A DNA stretch of 64,000 bases from an uncultured bacterium (GTDB taxonomy: Bacteria > Acidobacteriota > HRBIN11 > JAKEFK01). Below are positions 5,005 to 48,955 of this stretch, piece after piece. The position numbers and the translations under genes are program-made. The stretch is taken from NCBI GenBank assembly GCA_963777505.1, contig CAVZQN010000004.1, forward strand, positions 1,504,001 to 1,568,000, given 5' to 3'. The notes below the pieces were generated by a model. The model searched no databases. It was not told the origin of the DNA and saw only the letters and a program-made list of their open reading frames with translations. The stretch's first letter is position 1; every line of letters begins with the position of its first letter.

Positions 5005-5475
5005 ATGAATCGTTTCACGTTCTTTTTGTTGTGTCTTTTTCTTTCTGTAACAGCTTCTGTATTCGGAATTGAATCTGGTATCAACGTTTATGGCTTTTCG
5101 TATCATCCGGAACGAACCGATTCACAAGGAAATGGATTTCAAGAATGGAATCCAGGTGTGGGTTATCATGCAACATTACGAGAAACACATCACTCCATTC
5201 TTTTTGCGGATGCGGGAGTATTTTTAAATTCGCTGAGCAGTCCCACTTTGTTTTCCGCGGCGGGGGCTGAGTTAAAAATTCATAACGGAATAAGCGCTGG
5301 ACTATTTGGCGCTCTTATTTACAGCCGTGCTTACAATTTCGGAAAGCCTATCGTGGCTCCGCTCCCATCTTTATCGTTTCGGCACGGTCAATTCAGATTT
5401 AATGCGACATACTTTCCAAAGTACAAGCAGAATGAAAATGCAGCATTCGGCTTTTCGTTCACCTGGTTTCCATAA
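5005..5475 (+). CDS. Small outer-membrane beta-barrel protein, PagP-like
   Basis: Signal peptide, SYH...QEWNPGVG motif, alternating beta-strand pattern, aromatic C-terminus. Confidence 0.55.
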   Translation: MNRFTFFLLCLFLSVTASVFGIESGINVYGFSYHPERTDSQGNGFQEWNPGVGYHATLRETHHSILFADAGVFLNSLSSPTLFSAAGAELKIHNGISAGLFGALIYSRAYNFGKPIVAPLPSLSFRHGQFRFNATYFPKYKQNENAAFGFSFTWFP

Positions 5476-5502
5476 CACTACTCTGCTGTCCAAGGAGTGA
5501 AG

Positions 5503-6315
5503 ATGAAGTTCTATGTGAGTCTCATAGCGTTCCTATTCATCCATTCGTCTGCTTTTGCGGAAGTTTCTTCATCCGTTTCGATGTTTCAATATCACCCTGA
5601 ACGGATCAAGGTAGGTACCGTGTATCACTATACAAAATCAAATTTGGATGGAACAAAGCCGGCAACAGTTTCGATATACATCAAAGCAGCTGATACTCTT
5701 GAAGTCTATAAAGCCGAAGAGGAAGTCATCGATGCGGCTCACATCATCGCAAAAATGGACTGGACATCATTTTCAGCGTCTGAGTTAGATTCAGGTCATC
5801 TACTTAAAGATGGAACTCGCAAGCCTGTAGCAACTCTGACACTTTCAAAGGCAGACAATACGCTTCAAGTCCGGATCAAGGATCAAAATGGCAGCACAGC
5901 AATCAATCATTATCCGGTACACATCTACAACTTTGATTTCATCAGCTTCAATTACATACTCCGCCATCTAAAGGATCCAACAAAAACTTTTGAGATTGGG
6001 ATCGCTGATCCGATTTTTCAAGGCGAAGGATTGATCAAATACAAAGGGAAAGTAAAAATTGAATTCGCCGGCGAAGCTCCGTGTCATCAAACAACATGCC
6101 GCAAATACAGAATTACCGGCGAACCATTTGGTGACAAAGAAGGTTTCATGTGGGTAAATAAAAAGGAAGGCTATGCTGAGAACATAGAAGTCCCCGTTCC
6201 GGACAATCCTGATTGGAACAGTTTTAAGTTTGAATTGAAAAAGGTTGAGCAAATGACGCCGGCACAATGGGAGACTTATAAGAAAAACAACATTGGCCGA
6301 AAACCGTATCCTTAG
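5503..6315 (+). CDS. Exported hypothetical protein
   Basis: About 270 aa, signal peptide ending AFA, AAGGAG before ATG 5503. Confidence 0.75.
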   Translation: MKFYVSLIAFLFIHSSAFAEVSSSVSMFQYHPERIKVGTVYHYTKSNLDGTKPATVSIYIKAADTLEVYKAEEEVIDAAHIIAKMDWTSFSASELDSGHLLKDGTRKPVATLTLSKADNTLQVRIKDQNGSTAINHYPVHIYNFDFISFNYILRHLKDPTKTFEIGIADPIFQGEGLIKYKGKVKIEFAGEAPCHQTTCRKYRITGEPFGDKEGFMWVNKKEGYAENIEVPVPDNPDWNSFKFELKKVEQMTPAQWETYKKNNIGRKPYP

Positions 6316-6326
6316 TGTCTTTGCGG

Positions 6327-7671
6327 TTAAAACAAAAATAGATACGCAAGGAGCATTGCGGCAGCGGCACCAACGAGTGTGTTCATAAAGTTAATAATTT
6401 CATTATCAACAATCTTCATTTGTTCCAACGTTGCGCCAAGATAACTTTCAACAGTCGTCCCGATAAATCCAGCAACAACACAGATCCATCCGATCGTAAT
6501 ATTAATGGAGCCTAGCAAGATTCCGATACCGCATAGCACTGCGGATGCAACGATTCCTGCGAAGGTTCCTTCAAGCGAAACTGCACCTTCAGTTCCCACC
6601 GGAACGGGACGCAAAGTTGTAATCAGGATTGGATGTTTGCCAAGCACCTGACCAATTTCGCTGCTGACCGTATCTGCAGCTGCAGTAGCGAACGCTCCGA
6701 AAAATCCAGCAATAAAAATCAGTCCCTTATTTTCGGGAGAGAGCATCGCCAGAATCGCCAGGAATGCTCCCACAGAACAATTTGCCACTGCATTTTTCCA
6801 GCCTCTCGCGCCGCCTTTCTCTTGTGCAACTCCCATCGCTTTTTTGCGGGAGTATCCAAACTTGGTTGATGCTGATCCAAGAAAAAAGAACGTGAACAGA
6901 ATTATGAAAAGTTGATAACCACCAAATGTGTAAATTGTTGTTCCGATTAGTAACCCGCTAGCAAAGCCTGAAAAATTTACCATTCGTGCCGCGAAGGATG
7001 CGCCTGCCAAAGCTAGATTGATTGCAAAGCCCCACATGAAATTATGCAAAATTTGATCTTGATTTATGAAAACCAAGCTCGGATCGATTTGATTCAAGGC
7101 CAGCATAAAGAAGCCGGCGGAAATAGGAACTGTGAGATTATCGTTTAATCCGGAAGGAACTGTTTCAATCAGCGCTGCAAGTAATGTTGCAAGTACAGGG
7201 AATCATGATTCCATACCAAATCAAAGGTTCCGGGATCGTCTTCCTGATCCAGAATGTAAAGAACACAGCAGCTGCGCTGCCGAAAATAAAAAAAGCAATC
7301 GAACCTGCATAACTCCGCTCTGTGTTCCAGGGAATTTTTGCCGTTCCATACTTCTTTCCAACAAGCGATGCCATGCCGTCACCCCATGCCATGATTCCCC
7401 AGGCAGCGCCAACAATGTAAAGGTGATGTGGAAGTAATAAAATCAGAACTAAAACCGAAAAGGGATATAAAAGGATTCCAATTGGATAGCCACGCTGATG
7501 ATCATCATCTCGATATAAATGTTTTCCCCCAACTCGCGGCAAAATCAGAAAATTAAAGATGAATGCACAAAGAGCAATCAGGGCGCTCTGCCACCAGTTC
7601 AACCATCGTAAAAGAAATGCAAAGCCACTGGATCCAATGTGAACAGCCTTCCTCTTCAGTTCCGAATTCAT
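6327..7671 (-). CDS. Phytol/dolichol-kinase-like (CTP-dependent) domain fused to DUF92 (VTE6-like) domain; split by a +1 frameshift near 7198-7200
   Basis: 5' ORF has ELKRKAVH, WGDGMASLVG and RSYAGS. Removing one G from GGG at 7198-7200 gives IPVLATLLAALIETVPSGLNDNLTVP in frame with the DUF92 ORF (RGWKNAVAN, ADTVSSEIG, VPVGTEGAVSLEG). Confidence 0.8.
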
Positions 7672-7705
7672 GGAATTATTTTCACCACAAAGACGCAAAG
7701 ATTAC

Positions 7706-8695
7706 TTAATTTTTTACGTAGCCTTCGTTCTTGAGCCAGCCGATCATTTCGATTAAGCCATCTTTTAAAGATGTGATTGAGTAACCCAATTCATTAATTG
7801 CACGACTACTGTCATAAGCCCAGCTCAGTTTATAAATTTCGACAACTTCGTGAGTCAAGAGTGAAGGCTCGCGTCCGAATATTTTCGCAAGCAAATATTC
7901 TCCGTAACCTGCCATCTTGGCCATGCTGAATGGCATGTTCATCGCTGGCGGTTTTTTCCCCGTTACTTCGTGCACAGTCTTGTAAAAGGATTCACCTGTA
8001 TGATTCTCGCCCCCAAGAATATAACGATTTGAAGGCGGAGTGTTTTCGATGACTTTAACAAAACCATTGACAACATCCTGAACAAAAACGTAAGACCATG
8101 CTTTGAGCGGCAATCCAAAAGGCATCTTTCCATTCAAGAAAGGAATGAGATTTTTTGCAACAATATTTCCATACGTTAAATTTCCGGGTCCATAAATAAC
8201 GGCTGGATACAATATGTATAACGGAAATCCTTCTTGTTGAAGTTTCCTCGCTTTTTGATCGGCCAGATATTTTGTTCGCTCATAATCATTGTGCAAAACA
8301 TTGCTGCGGCGCGCATCATCTTCTTTCAACAGTGTTCCATTGGAAGGTCCAAGCGCGATAAATGAAGATGCGTAAATGAATTTCTGGATGCCTGCGTCGG
8401 CTGACATACGGATCGCCTTTTCAGTTGCATCCACATTGACACGGTCGAATTGCGCGCTGTCACGTGCCCACATCTTTACAAGTGCGGCAATATGAACAAA
8501 TACATCTTGATCTCGCAGTGCTGACTGATACGTTACAGGGGATTCAATTTCGCCTTTGACAATCTTCACACCTTCGGGAAAGGAAAGTTTTTCCGGTGAA
8601 CGAACAAGTGTAGTAATTGCATGTCCGCGTTGGTGAAGTGTTTTTAGTAGTTCGTTGCCAAGGAAGCCGGTAGCGCCCGTCATGAAAATATTCAT
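7706..8695 (-). CDS. Extended SDR oxidoreductase, farnesol dehydrogenase (FLDH)/HpnA-like
   Basis: TGATGFLG, YERTK catalytic motif, SSFIALG, LYPAVIYGPGNLT. Confidence 0.8.
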   Translation of the reverse strand: MNIFMTGATGFLGNELLKTLHQRGHAITTLVRSPEKLSFPEGVKIVKGEIESPVTYQSALRDQDVFVHIAALVKMWARDSAQFDRVNVDATEKAIRMSADAGIQKFIYASSFIALGPSNGTLLKEDDARRSNVLHNDYERTKYLADQKARKLQQEGFPLYILYPAVIYGPGNLTYGNIVAKNLIPFLNGKMPFGLPLKAWSYVFVQDVVNGFVKVIENTPPSNRYILGGENHTGESFYKTVHEVTGKKPPAMNMPFSMAKMAGYGEYLLAKIFGREPSLLTHEVVEIYKLSWAYDSSRAINELGYSITSLKDGLIEMIGWLKNEGYVKN

Positions 8696-9663
8696 GAAAC
8701 GGAAACTCCTTGAACTTTCATTTGCCAGTATTCAAATAAATCCTTCAAAGTGGTCCGCAAATCATACATGGGCCTCCAACCTGTTTGAGTTGTCAGTTTT
8801 TCGTGGCTTCCCAGGATGAGCGGCATGTCTACCGGACGAAATAAAGCGGAGTCTATTTCTACTTGAAAAGGTTTTCCGGAAAGGTCAATCAAGAGATGGA
8901 GAACTTCTTCAATTGATGGCGCTTTTCCTGAACAGACATTGTAAGGCTCACCAGGTTCACCGCTGTTTAGGATCGTGCTATAGGCTCTCACGACATCACG
9001 GACATCAGTGAAATCGCGGCGTGCTGATAGGTTTCCAACATGAATGCGATGAGGAGGTGGCTGGCCTGTCGCTATTGCGATCTGATAGGCAAAAGCGGAA
9101 CAAACAAAAGTCTCTTTTTGCCTCGGACCTGTGTGATTAAAAGCCCTGCAAATGTATACAGGTAGTTTTTCCGCACGCGCATACTGCATACCAAGAATTT
9201 CCTGAGCGATTTTACTTACCGCATAGGGCGAAGCGGGGGAGAGTGGAAAATCTTCTTTAATCGGTTGCTTTTCAGTGGGAACAATACCGTAAGCTTCGGC
9301 GGATCCTACCAACAGAACTTTAGGAAAGGCAGTCAATGAACGGCATGCTTCAAGCAAGTTAAAAGAACCAATAAAATTTGTCTCCATCGTCGCTCTACGA
9401 TGCGTCCACGATTCATGCACATGGGCAAGCCCTGCAAGATGATAAACAACTTCAGGTTTCACCAGCCTTAGAATCTTCTTTAAACGTGAAGCCTTAAGAA
9501 TATCTTCGCGATAAATCTGAATGCGCGGATGATCTTCAAGATGTTGAACTGCATGAGTAGGATGGATGATTCCTACAATCTGCACATCCGGATCTTTCAT
9601 CAGAAGATCGACTAGGTGGCTGCCAACAAAACCAGCAAGACCCGTGATAACAACTGTTTTCAT
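8692..9663 (-). CDS. GDP-mannose 4,6-dehydratase / GDP-4-keto-6-deoxymannose reductase (Rmd)-like SDR
   Basis: TGLAGFVG, GSAEAYG, SPYAVSK, FNHTGPRQ, GNLSARRDFTDVRD. Confidence 0.85.
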   Translation of the reverse strand: MKTVVITGLAGFVGSHLVDLLMKDPDVQIVGIIHPTHAVQHLEDHPRIQIYREDILKASRLKKILRLVKPEVVYHLAGLAHVHESWTHRRATMETNFIGSFNLLEACRSLTAFPKVLLVGSAEAYGIVPTEKQPIKEDFPLSPASPYAVSKIAQEILGMQYARAEKLPVYICRAFNHTGPRQKETFVCSAFAYQIAIATGQPPPHRIHVGNLSARRDFTDVRDVVRAYSTILNSGEPGEPYNVCSGKAPSIEEVLHLLIDLSGKPFQVEIDSALFRPVDMPLILGSHEKLTTQTGWRPMYDLRTTLKDLFEYWQMKVQGVSVS

Positions 9664-9747: not shown

Positions 9748-10710
9748 TTAGCGGATTTGTTCGCGCCAGTAATCTACGATATCACCAAGAGTCTTTTTGA
9801 AAGGAATTTGTGGTTTCCAACCAGTTGCTTTGTGAAACTTTGAAAAATCGCCTTTCAAAAGTGGAACATCGGAAGGACGCAAACGTGCAGGATCCTGTTT
9901 CACTTCGATTTGTAATCCTGTATGTCCGATTACCATACTGAGTAGATCGCGAATCGAAATCGCGTCTCCTGTGCAAATGTTGTAGACCTCACCTGGTTCG
10001 CATTTTTCCAGCGAAAGCCAATAGGCCTTCACCATGTCACGAACATCCGTAAAGTCGCGCTCTGCATCCAGATTCCCAACATAGATCACCGGCGGACGTT
10101 TCTTTCTCTCAATTTCAACAGCCTGTTTACTGAAGTTGGAGCAAACAAAAACTTCGCCGCGCCGAGGTCCTGTATGGTTAAAGCCTCGCGTACGAACTGC
10201 TTTAATTCCGTAAGACATGAAATACTGATATGCCAGATAGTCCTGTCCGACTTTGCTGACTGCATAAGGGCTCAGTGGCCGCAAGGGATTGTTTTCAGTA
10301 ATCGGAACTTCATCGGGATGCACCATTCCATATTCTTCACTCGAACACGCAATCTGCACCCAGCAATCCAGAAGTTTCGATTCGCGCAATGCCTCAAAAA
10401 TGTTTAATTGTCCAATGATATTTGTGCTTAACGATTCCGCAGGAGCGTTCCATGAACTTGGCACAAAACTTTGGGCTGCAAGATGGAAAATTTTGTCAGG
10501 CCGCACATCGGCAATCAGTGCTTTTACAGAAGATGCATCTACGAGATTGCATTCCATCACATTTACTTTATCCAGTAGATGTTCGATGTTTTCCATTCTG
10601 CTGCGCCATCTTCGGATCCCAAAAATTTCGACTCCGGGATGTTCTCGTAAGATGTATTCAGCGAGATGGCTGCCGGCAAAGCCGGTAATTCCTGTTATTA
10701 AGACTCTCAA
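9748..10710 (-). CDS. GDP-mannose 4,6-dehydratase-like SDR
   Basis: TGITGFAG, HLAAQSFV, SSEEYG, SPYAVSK, FNHTGPRRGEVFV; TTG start. Confidence 0.88.
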   Translation of the reverse strand: MRVLITGITGFAGSHLAEYILREHPGVEIFGIRRWRSRMENIEHLLDKVNVMECNLVDASSVKALIADVRPDKIFHLAAQSFVPSSWNAPAESLSTNIIGQLNIFEALRESKLLDCWVQIACSSEEYGMVHPDEVPITENNPLRPLSPYAVSKVGQDYLAYQYFMSYGIKAVRTRGFNHTGPRRGEVFVCSNFSKQAVEIERKKRPPVIYVGNLDAERDFTDVRDMVKAYWLSLEKCEPGEVYNICTGDAISIRDLLSMVIGHTGLQIEVKQDPARLRPSDVPLLKGDFSKFHKATGWKPQIPFKKTLGDIVDYWREQIR

Positions 10711-10751: not shown

Positions 10752-11636
10752 CTATGATCGCAATTCGTATTCGTTGGCTTTCAGGTATGCAATGTATTCC
10801 GCTGTACTCTGTTGCCAGGTACGCGGTGTCTGACCTGTGGTTCGAATGTAATGCGAACAGCTCAAAACCGAGTAATTCGGCCGCTTTGCCGGCGTAGGCA
10901 AACTGTCATTTTTAACAGGTTCTACAGAATTGTTCAAGCCATACAATCTCAAAATTGTTTCAGCTTGCTCATGACGGCTGCATTCACCGGTATTGGAGAA
11001 GTGGTAAGTGCCTGTGCATTTGAGGGATAGAAGCTTCAGAACGGCAGCCGCAACATCGCCGGCGTAAGTCGGTGCGCCTATTTGATCTATCGGCGCTTGA
11101 ACTTTTCCCCCGGCAAAAGCTCGTTTCAGTATCTTTTTGGCGAAGTTGTCACCATTTCTGCCGAAAATCCAGGAAGTTCGTATGATCAGAAACGAACCGC
11201 CGCCAGCAAGGATTTGTTTTTCGCCTTCCAGCTTCGTGACTCCGTAATAATTGACTGGATTTGGTGGATGATTTTCCACGTATGGAGTGCTGTTACTGCC
11301 TTCAAAAATATAATCGGTGGAAAAATGAACCAGAAGTGAAGAATATTTTTTGCAAAGCGCAGAAAGGTGGCCGGGTGCTTGCGCATTTACAACGAAAGCG
11401 GTTTCCCGAAATTTTTCACAATCATCAACACGAGTGAATGCGGCTGCATTCAATACAAATTCGGGTTTATGTCTTAAGAATACTTTTTCAACTTCAAGAT
11501 AATCCGTAATATCGAGTTCTTGATGCTGAAATTCAGCAAGTTGCGCTCCGGAACAAGCGCGTGATAAGGCACTTCCAATCATGCCGCCGGCGCCCAGCAG
11601 CAAAATACGACGCCCTAGCGTGGGCGAATCTGCCAT
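10752..11636 (-). CDS. rfbD: dTDP-4-dehydrorhamnose reductase
   Basis: GAGGMIG, NAAAFTRVD, STDYIF, YGVTKLEGE, DQIGAPT, AKRPNYS. Confidence 0.93.
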   Translation of the reverse strand: MADSPTLGRRILLLGAGGMIGSALSRACSGAQLAEFQHQELDITDYLEVEKVFLRHKPEFVLNAAAFTRVDDCEKFRETAFVVNAQAPGHLSALCKKYSSLLVHFSTDYIFEGSNSTPYVENHPPNPVNYYGVTKLEGEKQILAGGGSFLIIRTSWIFGRNGDNFAKKILKRAFAGGKVQAPIDQIGAPTYAGDVAAAVLKLLSLKCTGTYHFSNTGECSRHEQAETILRLYGLNNSVEPVKNDSLPTPAKRPNYSVLSCSHYIRTTGQTPRTWQQSTAEYIAYLKANEYELRS

Positions 11637-12649
11637 GCTCCCTCCGTAATGGTTCCATAATGTTTCGTGTAAAAGTCGTTAAAATCCTTTTGCCGTTCGC
11701 GAATTCTCTTCCACCAACCTTCGTTTGCTGCATACCAGTCAACTGTTGATTTCAATCCATTTTCGAGCGACCAATCAGGCTTCCATCCAAGGGCGCGAAG
11801 CCGCGAACTATCCAGTGAATACCTGCGATCATGTCCCGGACGATCCGCTACATGTTGAATCAAAGAATCCGGCTTTCCAAGTAAGTTCAGGATTTCTGTT
11901 GTAATTTCCATGTTGGTGCATTCCTGATTTGCACTGACGTTATAAACTTCACCGGCCATTCCATGTTCCAACAAGAATAACAATGCGGAACAATGATCGC
12001 GGACATATAGCCAATCGCGAACTTGTTTTCCATCTCCATAAACGGGAACGTTCATGTTTTGAATCGCGTTCGTTATGAAAAGCGGAATTAACTTTTCAGG
12101 ATATTGATTTGGACCATAGTTATTGCAAGATCGTGTGATAACAACAGGCAAGTCATAAGTCTTAAAGTAAGAATATGCGAGCCGGTCCGCTCCCGCTTTA
12201 CTCGCAGAATAGGGATTAGCGGGCATCAAGTTATCATCTTCGGTAAATGAGCCCTGTTCACGGCTGCCGTAGACTTCATCCGTAGAAATGTGAATGAACT
12301 TTTTAATGTTGTATTTGCGTGCAGCTTCAAGCAAAACATACGTGCCATAAACATCCGTTCGGATAAATGCTTCGGCGCCATAGATGGATCGATCTACAAA
12401 TGATTCAGCTGCAAAATGAACGACAACGTCGCATGCCGACATAGCATGATCTACAGCTTTTGCATCGCAGATGTCACCCTGAATGAAGCTATAACGCGAA
12501 TCAGATTTAAGATCTTCAAGGTTTTCGAGATTGCCTGCGTACGTCAGCAAATCAAGATTTGTAACTTCGGCGGTTTTATCAGCTTCAAGGAGAGCATGCA
12601 CAAAATGGCTGCCAATGAACCCCGCCCCGCCTGTAACCAGATATTTCAT
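11615..12649 (-). CDS. rfbB: dTDP-glucose 4,6-dehydratase
   Basis: TGGAGFIG, LTYAGN, HFAAES, STDEVYG, YSASKA, NNYGPNQYPEKLIP, DRPGHDRRY. Confidence 0.95.
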   Translation of the reverse strand: MKYLVTGGAGFIGSHFVHALLEADKTAEVTNLDLLTYAGNLENLEDLKSDSRYSFIQGDICDAKAVDHAMSACDVVVHFAAESFVDRSIYGAEAFIRTDVYGTYVLLEAARKYNIKKFIHISTDEVYGSREQGSFTEDDNLMPANPYSASKAGADRLAYSYFKTYDLPVVITRSCNNYGPNQYPEKLIPLFITNAIQNMNVPVYGDGKQVRDWLYVRDHCSALLFLLEHGMAGEVYNVSANQECTNMEITTEILNLLGKPDSLIQHVADRPGHDRRYSLDSSRLRALGWKPDWSLENGLKSTVDWYAANEGWWKRIRERQKDFNDFYTKHYGTITEGAWQIRPR

Positions 12650-12733
12650 AAAATTAAAAATGAAAAATCAAAAATAAAAAATGAGGAACTCTTCTCTCTG
12701 TTTTTGATCTTTTATTTTTCATTTTTAATTTTA
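12649..12733. repeat. Inverted array of AAAAT(C/G/T/A)A heptamers
   Basis: TAAAATTAAAAATGAAAAAT...ATTTTTCATTTTTAATTTTA fills the rfbA-rfbB spacer; same type at 19483-19555. Confidence 0.75.
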
Positions 12734-13804
12734 GTAAATATCAATCAGACTGTTATCTCCCACCAGAAATCGATAGACCTGCGGTGGACGATCGCTTCGT
12801 GCAATGCGCGTATTCATGCCTATCAGACTATCCTCTACACGCCGGTTGAGATGCAAGAGCTTGCTGCCACGAAGAACGATGCTATGTTGAAGTTCACTTC
12901 CACGAATCTCACATTGATCCTGAATCGAAGTAAATGGACCTACGAATGAATTTTCAATAACTGTATTTTCTCCAACGATTGCCGGACCTCGAATAGTACT
13001 TCCAATAATTTTTGCGCCCTTTCCGATTTCAACACGGCCATCAATCCGTGAAGCTGAATCAACTTCACCGTGAATTCCGCGTTGCAATGTTTCCAGGATC
13101 AATCGATTCGCTTCAAGCATATCGTCCAGCTTTCCTGTATCTTTCCACCATCCATCTACAATGTGCGGCTCAACACGATAACCTTTATCGATCAAATATT
13201 GAATTGCATCTGTAATTTCAAGTTCGCCGCGCCATGAAGGTTTCAAAATTTTCTCAGTTTCAAAAATATGATGATCAAACATGTACACACCGACAAGCGC
13301 CCAATTGCTACGTGGAGCTTTCGGTTTTTCTTCCAAACGGATAACGCGATTTTCCTCTAATTCCGCAACACCAAATTGTTCAGGATTCGGAACTGAAGCA
13401 AGCAAGATCTGAGAATTCGGCTTCGACTTCCGAAAATCATCGATTAATGATTCAATTCCATTTTTAAGAAGGTTATCACCGAGATACATAACAAAAGGAG
13501 ATTCTTTTAAGAATTTCTTTGCTGTAAAAACTGCATGTGCCAGACCGAGAGGTTCAGGTTGATCGATGTATGTGATCTTTGCACCCCAGCGGCTGCCATC
13601 ACCGACGGCTTCAACAACTTCATCTTTCGTTTCACCAACAATAATTCCGATATCGCGAATTCCTGCATTTGTTAACGCTTCAATCCCATAAAAAAGGATC
13701 GGTTTATTCGCCACTGGCATGAGTTGTTTTGCGCGGGTGTAAGTGAGAGGGCGGAGTCTTGTGCCTTTTCCTCCGCTTAAAATGAGTCCTTTCAGTTCCA
13801 TCAT
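12731..13804 (-). CDS. rfbA: Glucose-1-phosphate thymidylyltransferase, long form
   Basis: GGKGTRLRPLT, KQLMPVANKP, LGLAHA, RGELEITDA, C-terminal hexapeptide repeats. Confidence 0.92.
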   Translation of the reverse strand: MMELKGLILSGGKGTRLRPLTYTRAKQLMPVANKPILFYGIEALTNAGIRDIGIIVGETKDEVVEAVGDGSRWGAKITYIDQPEPLGLAHAVFTAKKFLKESPFVMYLGDNLLKNGIESLIDDFRKSKPNSQILLASVPNPEQFGVAELEENRVIRLEEKPKAPRSNWALVGVYMFDHHIFETEKILKPSWRGELEITDAIQYLIDKGYRVEPHIVDGWWKDTGKLDDMLEANRLILETLQRGIHGEVDSASRIDGRVEIGKGAKIIGSTIRGPAIVGENTVIENSFVGPFTSIQDQCEIRGSELQHSIVLRGSKLLHLNRRVEDSLIGMNTRIARSDRPPQVYRFLVGDNSLIDIY

Positions 13805-13810
13805 CAGGCG

Positions 13811-16165
13811 CTAGAATCGGCGCGGAGGGGTGCCACTGCGGAAATCAACGAGACTCCCAAGATTCGGAAGGCTAACTGTAAACGTAAATTGGTTCTCATC
13901 GCGTCGGAAAGAATCATCCCCAAAATCAAATCGTCTCCACTCCATGCCTACGGTAAAACAATCATCATTGTAAAGGAAGCCGGCTGAATTGCGATACACT
14001 TTCTTCTCCAAGAAATCGTAATCAAACTCACCCGTAAATACAAATCTGTTCTTTAGAATGCCAAAGCCCCCATTTAAACGAACCTGGTGAGCATCCGCGC
14101 GGGTTCGGATTCCTTCGATACGAACTCGATTCGAATAGTTGTAGCTGACATTTGCATACCAACGTTCCTGATCCCTCAATGTCGAGCCAACATTGATATT
14201 TGTGATCTGTTTTTCGTAAACATCGTAGTCAATTCCAAAATCGATGTTGTAATTAACGCTTGGGTTTATCCGTAAATCTGAGCTAATGGGTGACATGGGT
14301 CGAAGCTCTGGAAACCTCTCTACATCAAAACGATCCGATTGCATCGAATAACTTTGTGATAGCCGCCATGAAATTAATTCCCATGGAGATTCAATCTCTT
14401 CTTCATAGGGTGTTGGATTGTAATATTGATATTCGTCTGGGTCATATTCTTCTGGTTCTTTGATTGGACGTTTTGAATAAAGTAAGTTTGTGATCCCAAA
14501 TGTAACTACATTCAAACCAAAAATATCATCGACATCATCAATTCTCAGTATGTTTGCAATTTCTTCGATATCCTGAATGTAACGATACGTAACCTGAGGC
14601 TCAATCGCGTGCTTCCATTTCTTGGAATAGGCCATATTTGGAGTGTCAAAGATTTTCGAAAAATTTGGACCGCGTAAATCTAATGCCATGTCCATATATT
14701 TTCGCGTCACGGCATCGTCTAGAATAACAGGAACATCACGTGATCCCGTCGCTTCTTGCTGTTGAGCGCTATAGTGCGTTACGCGATAGCCGAACCCTGG
14801 TGTAAGTGTCAGCCAGGATAGATATGTCATCGGAAATGAAATACCTGGAAACATATCGTAACGCTGATACTTGGAACTTAACTCGGAGCTGCCAAGTAGA
14901 TCGCTTCTACCAAGGTAGCTTGCCGATCCAGTGAAAGTCCAGAATAGACCAGTCGGCCCGATTTCCTGACTGCGTGCTTGAAATTCGAGTTCAGGCAAAT
15001 GAAAAAGTTGAACTTCGCGGGATCTTGAAAATTGCGTTTCAGAAAAGTCACCTAACAGGTTCATACTGTAATAAGACCAGTTACGCGTAAGAAATCCTTG
15101 TGCGCGCTGCTGTCTGCGCGCGGACCCCGCAAAACTGTTGTCTGCATCTTGAATGTATTCGAAACTGCTGAATACATCTGCCACACCAGCTACACGAAAA
15201 TCTTTTGGAAGATCATGTTTTACGTCTGCGTTTAATGTCCACTGTGGCCCTAATTCCTGATCGTCGGCATAATAGTATCTGGTAGAGCCTCCCGATTTTT
15301 CTCCTGTTGCATAACGGTATTCCGCGCCGCCAGCCCAGCCGCGAATTGCCCAATGATCGACCCAATATGTGCTATCCATCGAACGGCCCATCGCCCAGAA
15401 AAAAGAACCACCAACCCAGAATCCTTTACTGTCGTTGGGTCCAAATCCTGGAAACAGAAAACCAGTCGCTCGGTCACGTTTAATCGGCCAGATCATGTAA
15501 GGTGAATAAAAAATCGGAACTGTCTTTGCCTTTAAAGTAAAGTTCTTAAAGTGAGCATACTCGTTGAACGTTAAGCGTGTTGTGGTTGTTTTTAATTGCC
15601 AGTGCGGGAGAATCTGCGAACATTCGGTAAAGACCCCATCGTAAATCTTGTATTCATCTTCACCTAGCTTATCTAGCTTGGTGCCCCAGAAGAAAAATTG
15701 GGGAGGAACATAGCCAAAAACGTTATACATGGTTCCAGTCTGGTCCTCCATGTTCATTTCGAGCTTTTCACCCGTAATCCGTTGTCCTTCTTGATCCAAC
15801 ACTACATTTCCTGTAGCAATCAATTGCTTCGTAGCGGTGTCATACTCGGCTCGATCGGATTGAAGGCGGACCCCTTTGTACGCGATGTCGACGTAGCCTT
15901 CTAAGATGAAATAATTCGGCCTTACTTCATCCTGTGTTTGTGATGAAATGTGGAGTTGTTCTGTAAAATCAGATTTGGGAAGGGTTCCATAGCTCCCAAG
16001 TTCTTCACGGTTAGGATCGATGCTGTTTGTACCCGTGCCTTGAGATTCAGTTGGATAGACTCCGCCTGTCTCTTCCTCATCTTCTTCATCGCTTTGGGAG
16101 AAAACAAGATTGAAAAACAGGAGAGAAAATATTGTTATAAGAAGTGCCACCCGTGCAAGCTTCAT
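13811..16165 (-). CDS. lptD: LPS assembly protein LptD
   Basis: Signal peptide, OstA-like domain (ATGNVVL, FTECS..PHW), PIFYSPY, RATGFLFP, KHAIEPQVTYRY, beta-barrel. Confidence 0.88.
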   Translation of the reverse strand: MKLARVALLITIFSLLFFNLVFSQSDEEDEEETGGVYPTESQGTGTNSIDPNREELGSYGTLPKSDFTEQLHISSQTQDEVRPNYFILEGYVDIAYKGVRLQSDRAEYDTATKQLIATGNVVLDQEGQRITGEKLEMNMEDQTGTMYNVFGYVPPQFFFWGTKLDKLGEDEYKIYDGVFTECSQILPHWQLKTTTTRLTFNEYAHFKNFTLKAKTVPIFYSPYMIWPIKRDRATGFLFPGFGPNDSKGFWVGGSFFWAMGRSMDSTYWVDHWAIRGWAGGAEYRYATGEKSGGSTRYYYADDQELGPQWTLNADVKHDLPKDFRVAGVADVFSSFEYIQDADNSFAGSARRQQRAQGFLTRNWSYYSMNLLGDFSETQFSRSREVQLFHLPELEFQARSQEIGPTGLFWTFTGSASYLGRSDLLGSSELSSKYQRYDMFPGISFPMTYLSWLTLTPGFGYRVTHYSAQQQEATGSRDVPVILDDAVTRKYMDMALDLRGPNFSKIFDTPNMAYSKKWKHAIEPQVTYRYIQDIEEIANILRIDDVDDIFGLNVVTFGITNLLYSKRPIKEPEEYDPDEYQYYNPTPYEEEIESPWELISWRLSQSYSMQSDRFDVERFPELRPMSPISSDLRINPSVNYNIDFGIDYDVYEKQITNINVGSTLRDQERWYANVSYNYSNRVRIEGIRTRADAHQVRLNGGFGILKNRFVFTGEFDYDFLEKKVYRNSAGFLYNDDCFTVGMEWRRFDFGDDSFRRDENQFTFTVSLPNLGSLVDFRSGTPPRRF

Positions 16166-16256
16166 GTCAAACAATTCACACCTTACCACGTGAGCTATTC
16201 TTTTTCAATGAAATCTCAGCGGCTCAGCGCTGGAAATTCAAGTACAATTTCAGTTG

Positions 16257-22191: not shown

Positions 22192-23169
22192 ATGCCTGAT
22201 GATGTAACGATTTCTGTGGATGGGATGGGAGGCGATTTTGCGCCACAGAACATTGTTTCTGGTTGTGTTCAGGCAGTTAACGAAACGGGGATCCGGGTTC
22301 TCCTAACCGGCCCCGAAGATCGGATGAAGGAAGAGTTAGCCCACCATCAATATCCTGTCGAACGGATTTCAGTGGTTCATGCTCCTGAAGTTGTCACAAT
22401 GGATGATCAACCTACAACCGCAGTTCGCAAGAAACGCAATTCCTCAATGCGAGTTGCAGTAGATTTAGCGGCTGAAGGTAAAACAGATGGGATTATTAGC
22501 GCCGGTAATACTGGCGCTATGTATGCAACGGTTAAATTCATTATTGGAGCCTTGCCTGGAATTGATAGACTTCCTTTAGCGGCATGGTTTCCGCATCCAA
22601 CCGGACGTTCCATCGTTTTAGATGTAGGCGCCAATGTGGATTGCAAACCGCGTCATCTTCTGGAATTTGCTTTAATGGGCTCAATCTTCGCTCAGGAAAT
22701 TTTTAACATTCCTTCACCCCGCATCGGATTACTCAACATCGGCCATGAAGATGCAAAAGGGAATGATCTGACTCGCGAAACTTTTCCATTGCTTAAGCAA
22801 AGCGATCTTAATTTCATTGGTAATGTTGAAGGAAATGATGTTTTTAAAGGTACAGCTGACGTTTACGTTTGTGATGGCTTCATCGGCAATGTGGCTTTGA
22901 AGGTCAGCGAAAGCTTGATAGAAACTATTTTTCATTTGTTACAGGACGAAATTCAGCAACAACCTAAAATTGGTAAAGTATTAACACGTTATTTTGATTA
23001 TTCTGAATATGGTGGAGCTCCTTTGCTTGGAGCGCGGATTCCAAGTTTCGTATGCCATGGCAAATCGAGTTCTAAAGCAATTAAGAATGCAATTCGAGTT
23101 GCGGAAGAATTTTGCAGTCATAAAGTAAATGAAAGAATTGACCGCAAGATTTCCCGGCTGAATTCGTGA
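22192..23169 (+). CDS. plsX: Phosphate acyltransferase
   Basis: DGMGGDFAP, SAGNTGA, LDVGANVD, FIGNVEG, CDGFIGNVALK, CHGKS. Confidence 0.95.
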   Translation: MPDDVTISVDGMGGDFAPQNIVSGCVQAVNETGIRVLLTGPEDRMKEELAHHQYPVERISVVHAPEVVTMDDQPTTAVRKKRNSSMRVAVDLAAEGKTDGIISAGNTGAMYATVKFIIGALPGIDRLPLAAWFPHPTGRSIVLDVGANVDCKPRHLLEFALMGSIFAQEIFNIPSPRIGLLNIGHEDAKGNDLTRETFPLLKQSDLNFIGNVEGNDVFKGTADVYVCDGFIGNVALKVSESLIETIFHLLQDEIQQQPKIGKVLTRYFDYSEYGGAPLLGARIPSFVCHGKSSSKAIKNAIRVAEEFCSHKVNERIDRKISRLNS

Positions 23170-23212
23170 AGCCGGGTTCCGAATTTTGACTCATGAAATG
23201 GATTGATGAATT

Positions 23213-24145
23213 ATGGCAAAAATTGCAGTTGTATTTCCCGGCCAGGGATCTCAAAACGTTGGGATGGGACGGGATTTCTATGATCGATATCCGCGAGCAC
23301 GCGGTGTATTTGAAGAAGCGGATCGTGCTTTAAAACGTCCCTTGAGCAAACTGTGTTTTGAAGGTCCGCAAGAAGAATTACAGCTTACGGAAAATACTCA
23401 ACCAGGATTATTAACAGTAAGTATCGCGATTTGGTCGCTGCTCAATGAGGTACTTCAGCCTGATTTTGTAGCAGGACACAGTCTTGGCGAATACACAGCA
23501 CTAACAGCAGCGGGTGCTTTGCGGTTTTCAGATGCGGTCAGATTAGTTCGCCGGCGTGGTGAATTTATGCAGCAGGCAGTGCCTGTTGGTCAGGGTGCGA
23601 TGCTTGCAGTCCTCGGCGCAGAGCCAGAAAAAGTCGAAGCACTCTGTAATGAAGCAGCGCAAGGACAGATCCTTTCCCCTGCGAATTTTAATTGCCCTGG
23701 ACAAATTGTTATTGCTGGTCATTCTGAAGCCATTCGCCGCGCCGCAGAAATGGCTCAAGCGATGGGAATCAAACGAACAATTCCGCTTGCAGTCAGTGCA
23801 CCCTTTCATTGTGCTTTAATGAAGCCAGCACAAGAAAACATGATGCCCGTAATCCAAGAACAGACATTCTATCCACTTAAATTTCCGCTCGTTACAAATG
23901 TTGATGCGTCCGTCGCTCAACTTCCGGAAAGAGTGCGCGATGCTTTGATCCGCCAGATCCCAAATCCTGTACTATGGTGGCAATCGATTGATTTACTGAT
24001 CCGCGAAGGAGTCAATACGTTTATCGAAGTAGGTGCCGGAAAAGTATTGACCGGAATGATCCGAAAAGTTTCGCGCGATGTTCAAACATTCAATGTTGAA
24101 AATGTAGACGACTATGAACAACTTCGCGCAAAATATCAAAGTTAA
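23213..24145 (+). CDS. fabD: Malonyl-CoA-ACP transacylase
   Basis: FPGQGSQ, GHSLGEY, VSAPFH. Confidence 0.95.
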   Translation: MAKIAVVFPGQGSQNVGMGRDFYDRYPRARGVFEEADRALKRPLSKLCFEGPQEELQLTENTQPGLLTVSIAIWSLLNEVLQPDFVAGHSLGEYTALTAAGALRFSDAVRLVRRRGEFMQQAVPVGQGAMLAVLGAEPEKVEALCNEAAQGQILSPANFNCPGQIVIAGHSEAIRRAAEMAQAMGIKRTIPLAVSAPFHCALMKPAQENMMPVIQEQTFYPLKFPLVTNVDASVAQLPERVRDALIRQIPNPVLWWQSIDLLIREGVNTFIEVGAGKVLTGMIRKVSRDVQTFNVENVDDYEQLRAKYQS

Positions 24146-24171
24146 ATTCTGCATCTCTGTGGTTTAATTCA

Positions 24172-24912
24172 ATGATGCTTAAAGAACGTTTAACAGTCGT
24201 AACTGGAGCAACTCGTGGAATCGGCCGCGCGATCGCATTGGAAGCTGCACGAAATGGCTCCGATGTAGTCTTATTTGGCCGGAACGAAGATCTTCTCGCC
24301 AGTGCAAAAGCCGAAATTGAAAGCATTGGACGAAGAGCTCTATCTCTTCCCGTTAATGTTGCAAAACAAAATGAGGTTGATGAAGTCTTTAAAACCGTTC
24401 TGAAAGAATTTCCTAAAATTGATTTCCTGGTAAATAATGCCGGTGTGACCCGCGATAATCTCTTACTGACTATGAAGCCGGAAGAATGGAATGATGTCCT
24501 TGAAACCAACCTGAACGGAGTTTATCACTGTAGTAAGGCCGTTCTCAGATCTATGATGAAGCAAAAATATGGAAAGATTGTTAACATAACTTCGATTGCC
24601 GGAATTACAGGAAATCCAGGTCAAACGAATTATTCGGCTTCAAAAGCCGGAGTGATCGGATTTACTAAAGCGTTGGCGAAAGAAATGGGAAAGCGTAATA
24701 TCTGTGTGAATGCAATTGCGCCTGGAATGATCGAAACCGATATGACTGTTTCACTCCCTGAAGAGCTGAAGAAACAGTATATGGAATCGATTCCTCTTGG
24801 ACGGTTCGGAAGAGCTGAAGAAGTAGCAGCACTCACAATCTTTTTGCTTTCTTCAGCAGCCGACTATATTACAGGGCAGACCTTCGCTATTGACGGCGGC
24901 CTTCAAATGTAA
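24172..24912 (+). CDS. fabG: 3-oxoacyl-ACP reductase
   Basis: TGATRGIG, NNAGVTRD, YSASKAG, fab gene context. Confidence 0.95.
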   Translation: MMLKERLTVVTGATRGIGRAIALEAARNGSDVVLFGRNEDLLASAKAEIESIGRRALSLPVNVAKQNEVDEVFKTVLKEFPKIDFLVNNAGVTRDNLLLTMKPEEWNDVLETNLNGVYHCSKAVLRSMMKQKYGKIVNITSIAGITGNPGQTNYSASKAGVIGFTKALAKEMGKRNICVNAIAPGMIETDMTVSLPEELKKQYMESIPLGRFGRAEEVAALTIFLLSSAADYITGQTFAIDGGLQM

Positions 24913-24979
24913 TATTTAAGTTTTTGGATTTTTACATCCGCTCTACGCGGACAATCCGCACAAACGACGGAGGACAAGA

Positions 24980-25210
24980 ATGGAAATCGCTGAAAAGGTA
25001 AAAGGTATCGTTACAGAACAATTAGGTGTGGATGCAGAGGAAGTAACACCAGAAGCAGCATTTATTGAGGACTTAGGGGCGGACTCTCTCGACACCGTTG
25101 AACTTGTAATGGCTTTTGAGGAAGAATTCGGAATTGTAATTCCGGATGAAGAGGCTGACAAGATTCGTACCGTAGGCCAGGCAATAAAATATATTGAAGA
25201 GCATAGTTAG
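24980..25210 (+). CDS. acpP: Acyl carrier protein
   Basis: [20 protein letters not shown]. Confidence 0.97.
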
Positions 25211-25218
25211 GAGGCCTT

Positions 25219-26460
25219 TTGGACCGCAGAGTTGTAATTACCGGAGTGGGGATGGTCTCTCCAATTGGGATTGGTACTGCAGCAAATTGGAATGGGCTGG
25301 TTGAAGGAAGATGCGGAATTTCAACAATTACGCGTTTTGATACGACTGACTACACCACTACGATTGCTGGTGAAATAAAAAATTTTGATCCTGCCGATTA
25401 CATTCCCAAAAAAGAAATTAAGAAAATGGATCTTTTTATCCATTACGCAATCGCAGCTTCAGATTTTGCTTTTCAAGATTCGGGCTTAAAAGTCGATTCC
25501 ACGAACGCTCCGCGCATTGGTGTTTATATCGGATCCGGTATTGGAGGATTCGGTGTCATTGAAGCGACACACAAAGCCCTTTTGGAAGGTGGTCCGCGAA
25601 AGATCTCTCCGTTTTTTATTCCTGCTTCCATTGTAAATCTTGCATCAGGCTGGGTTTCGATCCGGATTGGTGCGAAAGGTCCCAACTCAGCCACCTGTAC
25701 CGCTTGCACAACCGGTGCGCATGCAATTGGCGATGCATTTAAGATCGTTGCGCGTGGTGATGCAGATGTCATGATTGCCGGAGGATCAGAAGGCTGCATT
25801 ACACCTTTAGGAATCGGTGGATTTTGCGCAATGCGTGCTTTGTCTACACGAAATGATGAACCAGAAAAGGCAAGCCGTCCATTTGATAAAGATCGTGACG
25901 GATTTGTAATGGGCGAAGGCGCCGGAATTCTAATTTTGGAATCTCTTGAAAGTGCTCAAAAACGGAATGCACGCATCTATGCAGAAGTCGTTGGATACGG
26001 AATGTCCGGGGATGCTTTTCATATTACAGCACCATCTGAAGATGGTGATGGTGCGATTCGTGTTATGCAATTAACTATAAAAGATGCGGGAATTTCACCG
26101 CGTGAAGTGGATTACATTAATGCGCATGGAACATCGACACCATTTAATGATCGCGCGGAAACAATGGCAATAAAAAAAGTATTTGGAGATCATGCCAAAA
26201 AATTAGCCATAAGTTCAACGAAATCGATGACCGGCCATTTGCTTGGAGCTGCTGGAGGGTTGGAGAGCGCAATTATGGCTTTAGCGATTCACCATCAGAC
26301 TGCGCCGCCTACCATAAATCTTGATAACCCTGATCCGGATTGCGATCTTGATTATGTTCCTCATCACAGCCGGAAAATGGAAATTCGATACGCCCTATCC
26401 AATTCTTTTGGTTTCGGCGGCACCAATGGCGCCTTATTATTTAAAAGATATCCTGACTAA
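25219..26460 (+). CDS. fabF: Beta-ketoacyl-ACP synthase II
   Basis: TACTTG, NAHGTST, TGHLLGAAG, NSFGFGGTN; TTG start after GGAGG. Confidence 0.96.
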   Translation: MDRRVVITGVGMVSPIGIGTAANWNGLVEGRCGISTITRFDTTDYTTTIAGEIKNFDPADYIPKKEIKKMDLFIHYAIAASDFAFQDSGLKVDSTNAPRIGVYIGSGIGGFGVIEATHKALLEGGPRKISPFFIPASIVNLASGWVSIRIGAKGPNSATCTACTTGAHAIGDAFKIVARGDADVMIAGGSEGCITPLGIGGFCAMRALSTRNDEPEKASRPFDKDRDGFVMGEGAGILILESLESAQKRNARIYAEVVGYGMSGDAFHITAPSEDGDGAIRVMQLTIKDAGISPREVDYINAHGTSTPFNDRAETMAIKKVFGDHAKKLAISSTKSMTGHLLGAAGGLESAIMALAIHHQTAPPTINLDNPDPDCDLDYVPHHSRKMEIRYALSNSFGFGGTNGALLFKRYPD

Positions 26461-28710: not shown

Positions 28711-29334
28711 TTAACTCTTCACATAAATTGAGGCTTCTTTCTTGAGCTCGGCCAGCCATTCTTTTGTTCTTTCTTGAACGCGCGATTCAGCCAGCTTTGA
28801 TTGAATCAATTCAAAAGCTTCCGCAAAGGGGGGCACTTTTTCTCCTTTGAGTTCCAATTCCGGCTTAAGAACTTCATTGTAGTGAGCTTCAGCATCTTCA
28901 ATTCTGACATTTACGAAGGGACGGAAGCGAATGTTTATGAATTCACGAATGCTGAGTTGTTCGCGAACTTCACGATCAAAATCTTCATAATTCATTCCAA
29001 TCGAATTCAGGAACAGGAGGAATTCTTCCGGGCCGCCTAATTTTCTGGTAAAAGATTCCACGACTTCCTGAATCATTTCACGAGAAACAGTTGGCGGTGG
29101 CTGTCGTTCAATCTGTTGAATGACAAGATGATGATTGATTCTCTGCTCAAGTGGAGTTGGCGCGGGAGGAAGTCCAGAAACATTAAGTGCTAGCTTTTCC
29201 GTTGCGCTTACTTCACTGTGTGTGATGATTTGTTCGTCAACAATGGCTGAGATCTGATCAAGAATCACTGCTGAAGAAAGCGCAGGCGTTGTAAGAATAA
29301 AAGTAAAAATTGAAAGTACAATCTTAAAAAGCAT
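28711..29334 (-). CDS. SurA N-terminal-domain-like periplasmic chaperone (no PPIase domain)
   Basis: Signal peptide, LDQISAIVDEQIITHSEV, WLAELKKEASIY C-terminus. Confidence 0.75.
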   Translation of the reverse strand: MLFKIVLSIFTFILTTPALSSAVILDQISAIVDEQIITHSEVSATEKLALNVSGLPPAPTPLEQRINHHLVIQQIERQPPPTVSREMIQEVVESFTRKLGGPEEFLLFLNSIGMNYEDFDREVREQLSIREFINIRFRPFVNVRIEDAEAHYNEVLKPELELKGEKVPPFAEAFELIQSKLAESRVQERTKEWLAELKKEASIYVKS

Positions 29335-47462: not shown

Positions 47463-48955
47463 ATGAGCGTTCCTCGTTTCCGGAATCTGATTCGTGGAGA
47501 ATGGGTAGATTCCGTCTCCGGACGCACATTTTCTGACATCAATCCTGCCGATACGACGAGAAGTGTGCGGAGACTTTGCCGACAGCTCTCCTGAGGATTC
47601 ATTGGCAGCCGTTGATGCCGCACGTTCCGCATTTCAAAGTTGGCGTTTAACTCCTGCACCACGCCGTGCTGAAATCCTGTACCGCGCAGCTGAAATGATT
47701 GTTCGGCAAAAGGATGATCTTGCGCGTGATATGACGCGTGAAATGGGAAAAGTTTTCAAAGAAGCGGCCGGGGATGTTCAGGAAGCCATCGATATGACCT
47801 ATTACATTGCAGGTGAGGGACGCAGACTCCATGGTCATACAACGCCATCAGAGCTTCCGAACAAATATATGATGTCCCAGCGGGTACCGATTGGTGTGGC
47901 TGCAATGATTACACCCTGGAATTTTCCGATGGCGATTCCATCCTGGAAGATTGTGCCTGCTCTTGTCGCTGGAAATACAGTTGTTCTTAGACCTTCCCCC
48001 GAAGCTCCATTATCAGCCCATCATTTCGTTCGGATTCTCCATGAAGCAGGTATTCCACCCGGCGTCATCAATCTTGTAACTTCTTCTGGAAAAGAAGCTG
48101 CCGAGACGCTTGTTTCTCATCCGGATGTTCCAATCGTTTCATTTACCGGCAGCACACGTACCGGACAAATCATTAATGAGATGGCTGCACCAAAGTTTAA
48201 ACGGATTTCGCTTGAGATGGGCGGCAAAAATGCAATTCTCATTATGGATGATGCCGACCTGGATCTTGCAGCCGATGGCGCTCTTTGGGGCGGCTTTGGA
48301 ACTACAGGACAGCGTTGCACTGCAGCAAGCCGTTTGATAGTTCATGAAAGTATTCATGACTCTTTCCTGGAACGTTTTTTGCCGCGTGTAAAAGCGCTGC
48401 GTGTCGGAAATGGATTGGAGCCCAATGTCGATATGGGTCCTTGCATTAATGAAATACAGCTAAAAAAAGTTGAATCTTACGTTCAAACCGGGCGCGACGA
48501 AGGAGCGAAGCTGCTATGCGGTGGTGAACGCTTGAAGGGACAAACCTATGATCATGGTTATTTCTATTCCCCAACCGTATTCACCGATGTGACACGTCAA
48601 GATGAAAATTGCAAAGGAAGAAATATTCGGGCCAGTCGTTTCTGTGCTTCGCTGCAAAAATCTGGATGATGCAATTGAAATTTGTAACGGGACTGAATAT
48701 GGACTTTCAAGCTCGATCTATACAGGGAATGTTCATAATGCTTTTCGCGCGATGAGAGATTTGAACACAGGTATCACCTACATCAACGCTCCTACGATCG
48801 GCGCTGAAGTACATCTTCCATTCGGCGGGACCAAGCAGACAGGCAACGGACACCGGGAAGGAGGTCCAACTGTTCTGGATCTATACACCGAATGGAAAAC
48901 AATTTATGTAGATTTCAGCGGCCGCCTTCAAAAAGCACAAATCGACCCTCCTTAA
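47463..48955 (+). CDS. Aldehyde dehydrogenase family protein; two +1 frameshifts (about 47556 and 48600)
   Basis: Frame 1 [14 protein letters not shown]...INPADT; frame 2 [24 protein letters not shown]; frame 3 [17 protein letters not shown]. Confidence 0.88.

Follow-up and report, generated by a model that had tools for sequence, protein, structure and literature searches.

A conserved SDR, kinase-DUF92 fusion and UbiA-family gene set as a candidate prenol activation-and-transfer module in Acidobacteriota

We analysed a 64 kb stretch of DNA (the window; contig C4, 1504001-1568000) from the genome of an uncultured soil-type acidobacterium (5.2 Mb, 14 contigs, 95.9% complete), focusing on two adjacent minus-strand genes that encode an extended short-chain dehydrogenase/reductase (SDR) of farnesol dehydrogenase (FLDH) type and, directly downstream, a kinase-like domain fused to a DUF92 domain. 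The assembly splits the fusion gene into two open reading frames (ORFs). With moderate confidence, we assign both genes to a conserved three-gene bacterial module for prenol activation and transfer, and we take the fusion gene to be intact in the organism. The third partner is an orphan UbiA-family gene that was missed in the initial annotation, which had proposed the SDR and the fusion as a prenol salvage pair. In the module as we picture it, the SDR would reduce an isoprenoid aldehyde to its alcohol, probably with NADPH, and the fusion would act as one membrane protein whose N-terminal domain, of SEC59/DGK1/VTE5 type, would turn the prenol into a prenyl phosphate (by homology to VTE5/FOLK) and whose C-terminal domain, of DUF92/VTE6 type, would turn that phosphate into the diphosphate (by homology to VTE6). 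The dedicated UbiA-family prenyltransferase would then, as its synteny and co-occurrence suggest, move the prenyl group of the diphosphate onto an acceptor. Coordinates below are window positions unless a contig is named, and the features of the gene row are collected in Table 1.

The pairing of the SDR with the fusion recurs across many genomes. Among 80 related loci, taken from contigs representing one genome per species, 66 carry the kinase together with DUF92 and 14 carry DUF92 alone (12 in Cyanobacteria, 2 in Planctomycetota). Upstream sequence of 1000 nt or more is available for 60 of the loci; in 46 of these the place directly upstream on the same strand is taken by an SDR ortholog (34-70% identity), and in 14 it is not. 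The pair was seen in Thermoanaerobaculia, Vicinamibacteria, Holophagales, Polarisedimenticolia, two Planctomycetota and one Fischerbacteria record. Counts within the phylum come from one set of 151 evenly drawn Acidobacteriota genomes, used throughout and including one unpublished genome (G029). Matches to the fusion at E <= 1e-15 were found in 73 of these genomes, comprising 47 with a full-length fusion, 10 with a shorter type (f21), 4 with other partial copies and 12 with DUF92 only, and a profile of 32 SDR orthologs matched 59 genomes at E <= 1e-60. Within the 47 full-fusion genomes, the SDR is adjacent upstream in 30 and on another contig in 5 (367-393 bits), and in 12 it is absent or represented by a merely HpnA-like protein; leaving out G029, it is adjacent in 30 of 46 and absent in 11. 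Viewed from the side of the SDR, every genome with an SDR match of at least 296 bits also holds the full fusion (32/32). These co-occurrence and synteny counts bear out the SDR-fusion adjacency on which the initial annotation had built its proposal.

The ORF just downstream of the fusion belongs to one family in 28 of 59 loci, and all 7 members that were scanned match the UbiA prenyltransferase family (PF01040, 1e-29 to 5e-45). The nearest NCBIfam models of this family, all scoring below cut-off, are the PRK12884 prenyltransferase, ChlG, DGGGP synthase and homogentisate phytyltransferase (HPT), and both Asp-rich motifs are in place, with N63, D67, D71, K188, D189, D192 and D196 invariant in 22 orthologs. 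Across the phylum sample, exactly one ortholog each was detected in 54 genomes (323-595 bits), and its distribution follows the class of the fusion, being found in 44 of 47 full-fusion genomes, 9 of 10 genomes with the shorter type and none of the 12 with DUF92 only. Conversely, 53 of the 54 UbiA-carrying genomes hold the fusion, G050 being the single genome with UbiA and no fusion. The two genes are neighbours in 28 genomes, in which UbiA lies no more than 1500 nt downstream of the fusion (same strand in 25, reported on the opposite strand in 3). The copy in our genome lies on another contig (C1:198704-199615), scoring 459.8 bits in the ortholog search and 133.8 bits against PF01040 (cut-off 34.2). 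JGI names it 4-hydroxybenzoate polyprenyltransferase, a generic label, and its neighbourhood in this genome (MoaC/MoCF, a sulfatase-TPR protein and unknowns) held no pointer to the acceptor. A role in archaeal-type diether synthesis finds no support, GGGPS/PcrB (PF01884) not being found in this genome. The genomes with the shorter fusion (e.g., G109:C45:13475-14686) form a variant of their own, in which the fusion covers profile positions 4-386 only and is in two pieces in 4 genomes, UbiA always follows ~240-340 nt downstream, and no SDR ortholog is present.

The joining of kinase and DUF92 in one protein is the normal architecture in relatives, with 1935 proteins matching the fusion at E <= 0.001 among 8000 scored and, among the matches listed, full-length ones measuring mostly 445-470 aa. 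The C-terminal domain is the sole DUF92 of this genome and matches PF01940 at 197.7 bits (cut-off 27.5), while TIGR00297 gives 194.0 bits for the 259-aa truncated ORF alone, under its cut-off of 205.85. It shares 36-45% identity with the standalone DUF92 proteins of the 14 DUF92-only loci. Neither the 177-aa kinase ORF nor the N domain found a match in Pfam or NCBIfam, and the Pfam family CTP_transf_1 (PF01148) matched 1 of 19 fusions (E 9.5e-4) and 1 of 36 further relatives (0.015). Seeing that the same model finds CdsA only in 5 cyanobacterial genomes and misses their VTE5-type proteins as well, we consider it too narrow as a test of the N domain. A profile of 32 N domains, by comparison, matches 7 full-length standalone proteins (228-251 aa) in 5 of 5 cyanobacterial genomes, one or two per genome, at E 1e-11 to 4.5e-20 and over positions 2-191 of 192, and 5 of these 7 fall in clusters whose names are 'phytol kinase' (the JGI label), 'SEC59/DGK1/VTE5 family' and 'diacylglycerol/polyprenol kinase family'. 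Among 1.84 billion representatives, 7618 match this profile at E <= 0.001, some of them as standalone proteins of ~190-240 aa. Residues R7, H11, G97, D98, G99, D177, N178 and P182 are invariant in the 19 fusions and in the 32 N domains alike, and the motifs RKxxH, GDG and DN..VP, which we take to be family-defining for SEC59/DGK1/VTE5, also occur in the cyanobacterial standalone proteins. The homology to VTE5-type and VTE6-type kinases claimed from the start is thus supported on both halves of the protein, by the DUF92 match (Table 1) and by the N-domain profile reaching named VTE5-family proteins.

Structural comparison adds a weaker hint. An AlphaFold model of the N domain (pLDDT 93.4) was aligned by VIA-align to CarS (5guf; Z 7.2, root-mean-square deviation 2.8, 103 residues, 19% identity, model residues 82-195), with CdsA 4q2e (Z 5.8) and a TRIC channel (Z 7.6) among the further top rows, and we regard this modelled fold similarity to the CTP-dependent CarS/CdsA as suggestive, not decisive. 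The fusion profile found a chance match only among PDB sequences (E 0.42).

The SDR itself is intact, and the four segments that had been quoted as FLDH-like (SSFIALG, YERTK, LYPAVIYGPGNLT and FLNGKMP) are all present in its translation. The GxxGxxG glycines (G7, G10, G13), S110/S111, Y138, K142 and R32 are invariant in 32 orthologs, and the position of R32 after the second strand we take, from general knowledge of SDRs, to suggest NADP(H). The best NCBIfam model is that of HpnA (TIGR03466), against which the SDR scores 191.7 bits over its full length, far from the cut-off of 367.65; true HpnA proteins in the phylum sample score 423-505 bits (21 of 151 genomes), with a clear gap beneath them. 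In a quick IQ-TREE search over 50 rows, which include 32 fusion-adjacent SDRs and 14 HpnA proteins and leave plant FLDH out, these two sets fall on opposite sides of branches with an SH-aLRT of 96, and the SDR clade and HpnA group together (support 99) away from RmlB, the gmd-like gene and the second SDR of the same operon. By score and by tree, then, the SDR is distinct from HpnA and stands apart from the sugar dehydratases of its own operon, which agrees with the initial preference for an FLDH-like protein over either. Searches of this genome found neither an HpnA above cut-off nor a squalene-hopene cyclase domain. The JGI label for the SDR orthologs is 'farnesol dehydrogenase' or 'NAD+-dependent farnesol dehydrogenase', and that for true HpnA and for the HpnA-like paralog of this genome is 'dihydroflavonol-4-reductase'. 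The nearest named protein-atlas cluster is 80% Eukaryota, mostly Streptophyta (332 aa, score 0.99), and among solved structures 3wj7, labelled a 'putative oxidoreductase', comes closest (140 bits), followed by cinnamoyl-CoA reductases at ~40 bits. A second HpnA-like SDR of this genome (L082; C4 1677895-1678863) scores 222 bits, below the HpnA cut-off, is conserved in its family and forms a very long branch of the tree.

As assembled, the fusion gene carries one base too many. RKAVH and GDG lie in the frame of the 177-aa ORF, and NDNLTVP lies with DUF92 in the +1 frame, upstream of the ATG of the DUF92 ORF at 7106, so that a +1 shift is needed between ~7165 and 7205, an interval within which the extra base cannot be placed more finely. 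The open +1 frame holding DUF92 is 291 aa long, and taking one four-letter step at the CCC run yields a 447-aa protein with zero stops that aligns gap-free at the junction with 18 full-length homologs (445-470 aa); the single fused gene that the initial annotation obtained by removing one G is thereby confirmed as a reading. An intact protein from another assembly (P0002) is identical to the repaired fusion at 445 of 447 residues (99.5%), and on its contig (444,816 bases) the SDR is present only as a 203-aa C-terminal piece (P0216; 100% identity over 201 residues). Because the assemblies of two near-identical organisms break different genes of the pair, we read the break in the fusion as a probable assembly error. 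A 151-base contig of a relative (~96% alike, from a public run) drops register exactly at 7198, with 11 loose letters, which fits what is expected of a GG copy, if in another strain; the same-genus genome G046, at ~70% DNA identity, is too distant for a base-level comparison at the break. Within the phylum sample, this genome's copy is the only full-length one with an internal stop (1 TGA), the other 46 having none.

An assembly indel is therefore, in our judgement, the probable cause of the break, and for annotation we recommend entering the two ORFs as a single gene in which an assembly indel is probable. That the fusion is truly broken in this strain, the module here being a recent pseudogene, we find improbable. 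Such a reading takes the assembly at its word, which has GGG and with it an in-frame stop, and it can point to the public sequencing runs searched, among which none with this exact DNA was found (the best shares 0.10 of sampled words, and only 151-base contigs of relatives cover the site). A decaying gene, however, would sit poorly with a sequence otherwise free of defects and all but two residues the same as the intact copy, with an assembly that breaks the neighbouring SDR instead, with 46 of 46 other full-length copies lacking an internal stop, and with a second conserved gene in the 64-kb window that is frame-broken too, as assembly indels would produce.

That second gene encodes an aldehyde dehydrogenase (47563-48955, plus strand). 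Pfam Aldedh profile positions 21-363 of 461 are found in the ORF at 47563-48666, and the remainder, including EEIFGPV, lies in another frame (48593-48955), with the break at ~48585-48600 and no obvious homopolymer there. On contig C1 (L121, 13054-14560), a 167-aa ORF covers a Ser/Thr protein kinase domain only as far as position 148 of the 263 in the profile, and 29 nt past this ORF lies a 324-aa ORF with no family match; this may be another frame break of the same assembly.

Two further readings give the pair a role in glycan synthesis, drawing on its place at the end of an unbroken minus-strand row that runs from LptD through long-form RmlA, RmlB, RmlD, a gmd-like gene, a second SDR and the FLDH-type SDR to the kinase/DUF92 ORFs. 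In one of them, the SDR works with the upstream sugar genes, on an NDP-6-deoxyhexose or a polyprenyl-phosphate-linked sugar, and reduces no prenal, with the kinases and UbiA supplying or modifying the lipid part of an envelope glycolipid; we consider this proposal unlikely as a whole. It would explain the ATGA overlap by which the stop of the second SDR (a GDP_Man_Dehyd-family gene) meets the start of the FLDH-type SDR and through which the two are translationally coupled, as well as why 37 of the 56 ORFs called immediately upstream encode RmlD or an NDP-sugar-type SDR and why LptD lies upstream in 29 loci, and sugar epimerases do share the extended-SDR fold. The SDR clade, however, sits with HpnA and off RmlB, the gmd-like gene and the second SDR, its ortholog is confined to kinase-fusion genomes (all 32 above the 296-bit line), 10 loci hold the SDR-fusion pair with no sugar genes inside 5 kb, and automatic names and the protein atlas point toward FLDH-type proteins.

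Less probable again, and to our mind very doubtful, is that the fusion recycles the general glycan carrier, converting undecaprenol to undecaprenyl phosphate or diphosphate for lipopolysaccharide or O-antigen. The fusion's position closing the lptD-rmlABD-gmd-like row and the membership of its N domain in the polyprenol/dolichol kinase family would both suit this idea, but a carrier role should be near-universal and only 73 of the 151 phylum genomes match the fusion at E <= 1e-15, 47 of them in full. The near one-to-one co-occurrence with a dedicated UbiA would be superfluous for a carrier cycle, and the nearest UbiA families take C20 donors. The undecaprenyl carrier works as a monophosphate, for which a second phosphorylation goes in the wrong direction. 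The initial annotation had suggested recycling of a polyprenyl carrier or of quinone or hopanoid precursors, and for this part of it we find no support, since the module is patchy in the phylum, has its own orphan UbiA and occurs here in a genome in which no squalene-hopene cyclase was found.

Several points weigh against the prenol activation-and-transfer module that we favour. The SDR profile was trained on fusion-adjacent SDRs and the 296-bit line was set after the scores had been seen, and the sampled genomes are kin, such that the counts are not independent. The 12 of 47 full-fusion genomes without an SDR ortholog imply that the SDR is dispensable for the kinases. The FLDH label of the SDR comes from automatic names and a language-model look-alike, with no plant FLDH in the tree, and plant FLDH is described with NAD(H), whereas R32 here suggests NADP(H). 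For the N domain, PF01148 matches just the one fusion in 19 and in this genome finds CdsA only, the VIA-align Z values of 5.8-7.6 lie within what chance alone can give for helical bundles, and Foldseek matched the model to no PDB entry at E <= 0.001 (CdsA 4q2g had probability 0.89 and E 0.18). Lastly, a sugar role would also fit the gene order, in which a sugar-nucleotide-type SDR ends in an overlap with the start of our SDR and genes of that kind nearly always come before it.

The closest known systems are the prenol salvage routes of plants and cyanobacteria. The plant route is outlined as running from FCLY, which yields farnesal, through FLDH, which yields farnesol and uses NAD(H), to FOLK/VTE5 and then VTE6 (PMC13415981), with the general logic of salvage given as two phosphorylations followed by prenyl transfer (PMC13415981; PMC9782597). 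The same two kinase families, VTE5/FOLK and VTE6 (DUF92/COG1836), occur in the module described here, and just as plant and cyanobacterial salvage feeds the UbiA-family enzymes HPT/VTE2, ChlG and MenA, a UbiA-family user is found here also. The differences are that both kinases here are in one polypeptide, that the hosts are non-photosynthetic Acidobacteriota, Planctomycetota and others, that the UbiA partner falls below every NCBIfam cut-off, and that the genes ride with lptD and sugar-nucleotide genes. Arabidopsis FLDH (At4g33360) resembles the SDR here in being an extended SDR of ~330 aa with TGxxGxxG and YxxxK and in its pathway place upstream of a prenol kinase; it differs in its NAD(H) use, set against the R32 of our SDR, and in that its aldehyde comes from prenylcysteine lyase, no such source being known here. 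HpnA is both the closest NCBIfam model and the sister group in the quick tree, whereas the SDR is far under its cut-off, forms a separate clade and occurs in a genome in which neither an HpnA above cut-off nor a squalene-hopene cyclase was found. True HpnA is held by most of 8 DUF92-only genomes (f29), which are without the SDR ortholog and the UbiA partner.

A 2026 review (PMC13022625) assigns all known prenol kinases to photosynthetic organisms and Plasmodium and calls the kinases elsewhere 'missing', and the literature that we searched at listing and abstract level held no description of this module in non-photosynthetic bacteria. Judging from sequence, a prenol activation route known from plants is probably present here in non-photosynthetic bacteria. 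Genetic definition of prenol salvage, from the alcohol through the monophosphate to the diphosphate, is so far limited to plants, cyanobacteria and Plasmodium; if our reading is true, no kinases for prenols or prenyl phosphates would have been found earlier beyond photosynthetic lineages and apicomplexans. The gene set, which is widespread among bacteria of soils and sediments, combines the two kinase types in a single protein and supplements them with a reductase of FLDH type and a dedicated prenyltransferase. It allows direct tests of how DUF92 works as an enzyme, of which substrates bacterial VTE5-type kinases accept and of whether Acidobacteriota contain a new envelope lipid.

As for what the module makes, its position at the end of a row of lptD and sugar-nucleotide genes leads us to regard a cell-envelope lipid as the most likely product, and an isoprenoid lipid that is glycosylated or placed in the outer membrane would suit this setting. 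A broader proposal, which we put forward tentatively, is that many non-photosynthetic bacteria (Acidobacteriota, some Planctomycetota, Fischerbacteria, Nitrospinota) could make an undescribed prenylated envelope lipid via this module. Its details are as speculative as the whole, namely that a UbiA of the ChlG/DGGGPS/HPT branch might attach the prenyl group and that the lipid, given the genetic tie of the pathway to LptD and 6-deoxyhexose synthesis, may be an isoprenoid of the outer membrane carrying rhamnose or some other sugar.

Table 1. Features of the gene row around the SDR and the kinase-DUF92 fusion (window positions).
Feature	Position	Strand	Evidence or remark
LptD	13811-16189	-	PF04453 2.3e-22; head of the minus-strand row
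RmlA, long form	12731-13804	-	TIGR01208 491.4 bits, above cut-off 320.25
RmlB	11615-12649	-	TIGR01181 452.2 bits, above cut-off 365.1
RmlD, dTDP-4-dehydrorhamnose reductase	10752-11636	-	TIGR01214 285.7 bits, above cut-off 224
Gmd-like NDP-sugar 4,6-dehydratase	9748-10710	-	PF16363 4.7e-82; TIGR01472 188.6 bits, below cut-off 415
Second SDR, GDP_Man_Dehyd family	8692-9663	-	often kept upstream of the FLDH-type SDR in related loci
FLDH-type extended SDR, 329 aa, intact	7706-8695	-	Pfam Epimerase 1.2e-25, 3Beta_HSD 2.7e-19
Kinase-like ORF, 177 aa	7165-7698	-	homolog alignment sets true start at ATG 7671; domain 7165-7671
GGG run on plus strand (CCC in gene), one extra base	7198-7200	.	breaks the fusion
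DUF92 ORF, 259 aa	6327-7106	-	PF01940 2.8e-58; +1-frame rest of the fusion 6327-7203

The row agrees with the lptD-rfb-gmd setting described initially in its LptD and its three Rml proteins, all of the latter above their NCBIfam cut-offs, and both of its GDP_Man_Dehyd-family genes score under the gmd cut-off. Between the stop of the SDR and the ATG of the fusion lie 34 bases. Of the 80 related loci, each covered with 6 kb of flank, 29 have LptD upstream in the same orientation, and the genes that recur between LptD and the SDR are RmlA, RmlD, the gmd-like gene and the second SDR; in the synteny comparison of loci, the gmd-like dehydratase shows 63-69% identity across classes.

Variants of the fusion gene include 3 planctomycete loci in which the kinase and DUF92 are separate adjacent genes. 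In these split-gene loci (L061 1847-3751; L044/L046), a conserved gene of ~640 aa precedes in place of the SDR, and a type I phosphodiesterase/nucleotide pyrophosphatase domain was detected in 1 of 3 of its products scanned. Two entries that looked like an SDR and a kinase in one protein were rejected as such, P0296 having no SDR similarity past residue 174 and P0243 having none; they are frame or extension artefacts of gene calling in GC-rich DNA, and entries of this kind could mislead domain-architecture surveys.

Other parts of the window also bear envelope and lipid genes. Convergent to the fusion gene (5005-6315, plus strand) are a PagP-like ORF (E 8.8e-5) and a DUF3108-like ORF (E 5.9e-4), both below cut-off, which by sequence may encode outer-membrane lipid-modifying proteins. 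At 29327-34919 on the minus strand, a 942-aa Omp85/BamA-like protein that carries five POTRA repeats precedes a TamB-like protein of 934 aa, and this pair is further outer-membrane biogenesis machinery within the window. A fatty-acid synthesis row occupies 22192-26457 on the plus strand, with a PlsX-like protein, an acyltransferase (FabD-like), a FabG-like reductase and a beta-ketoacyl synthase.

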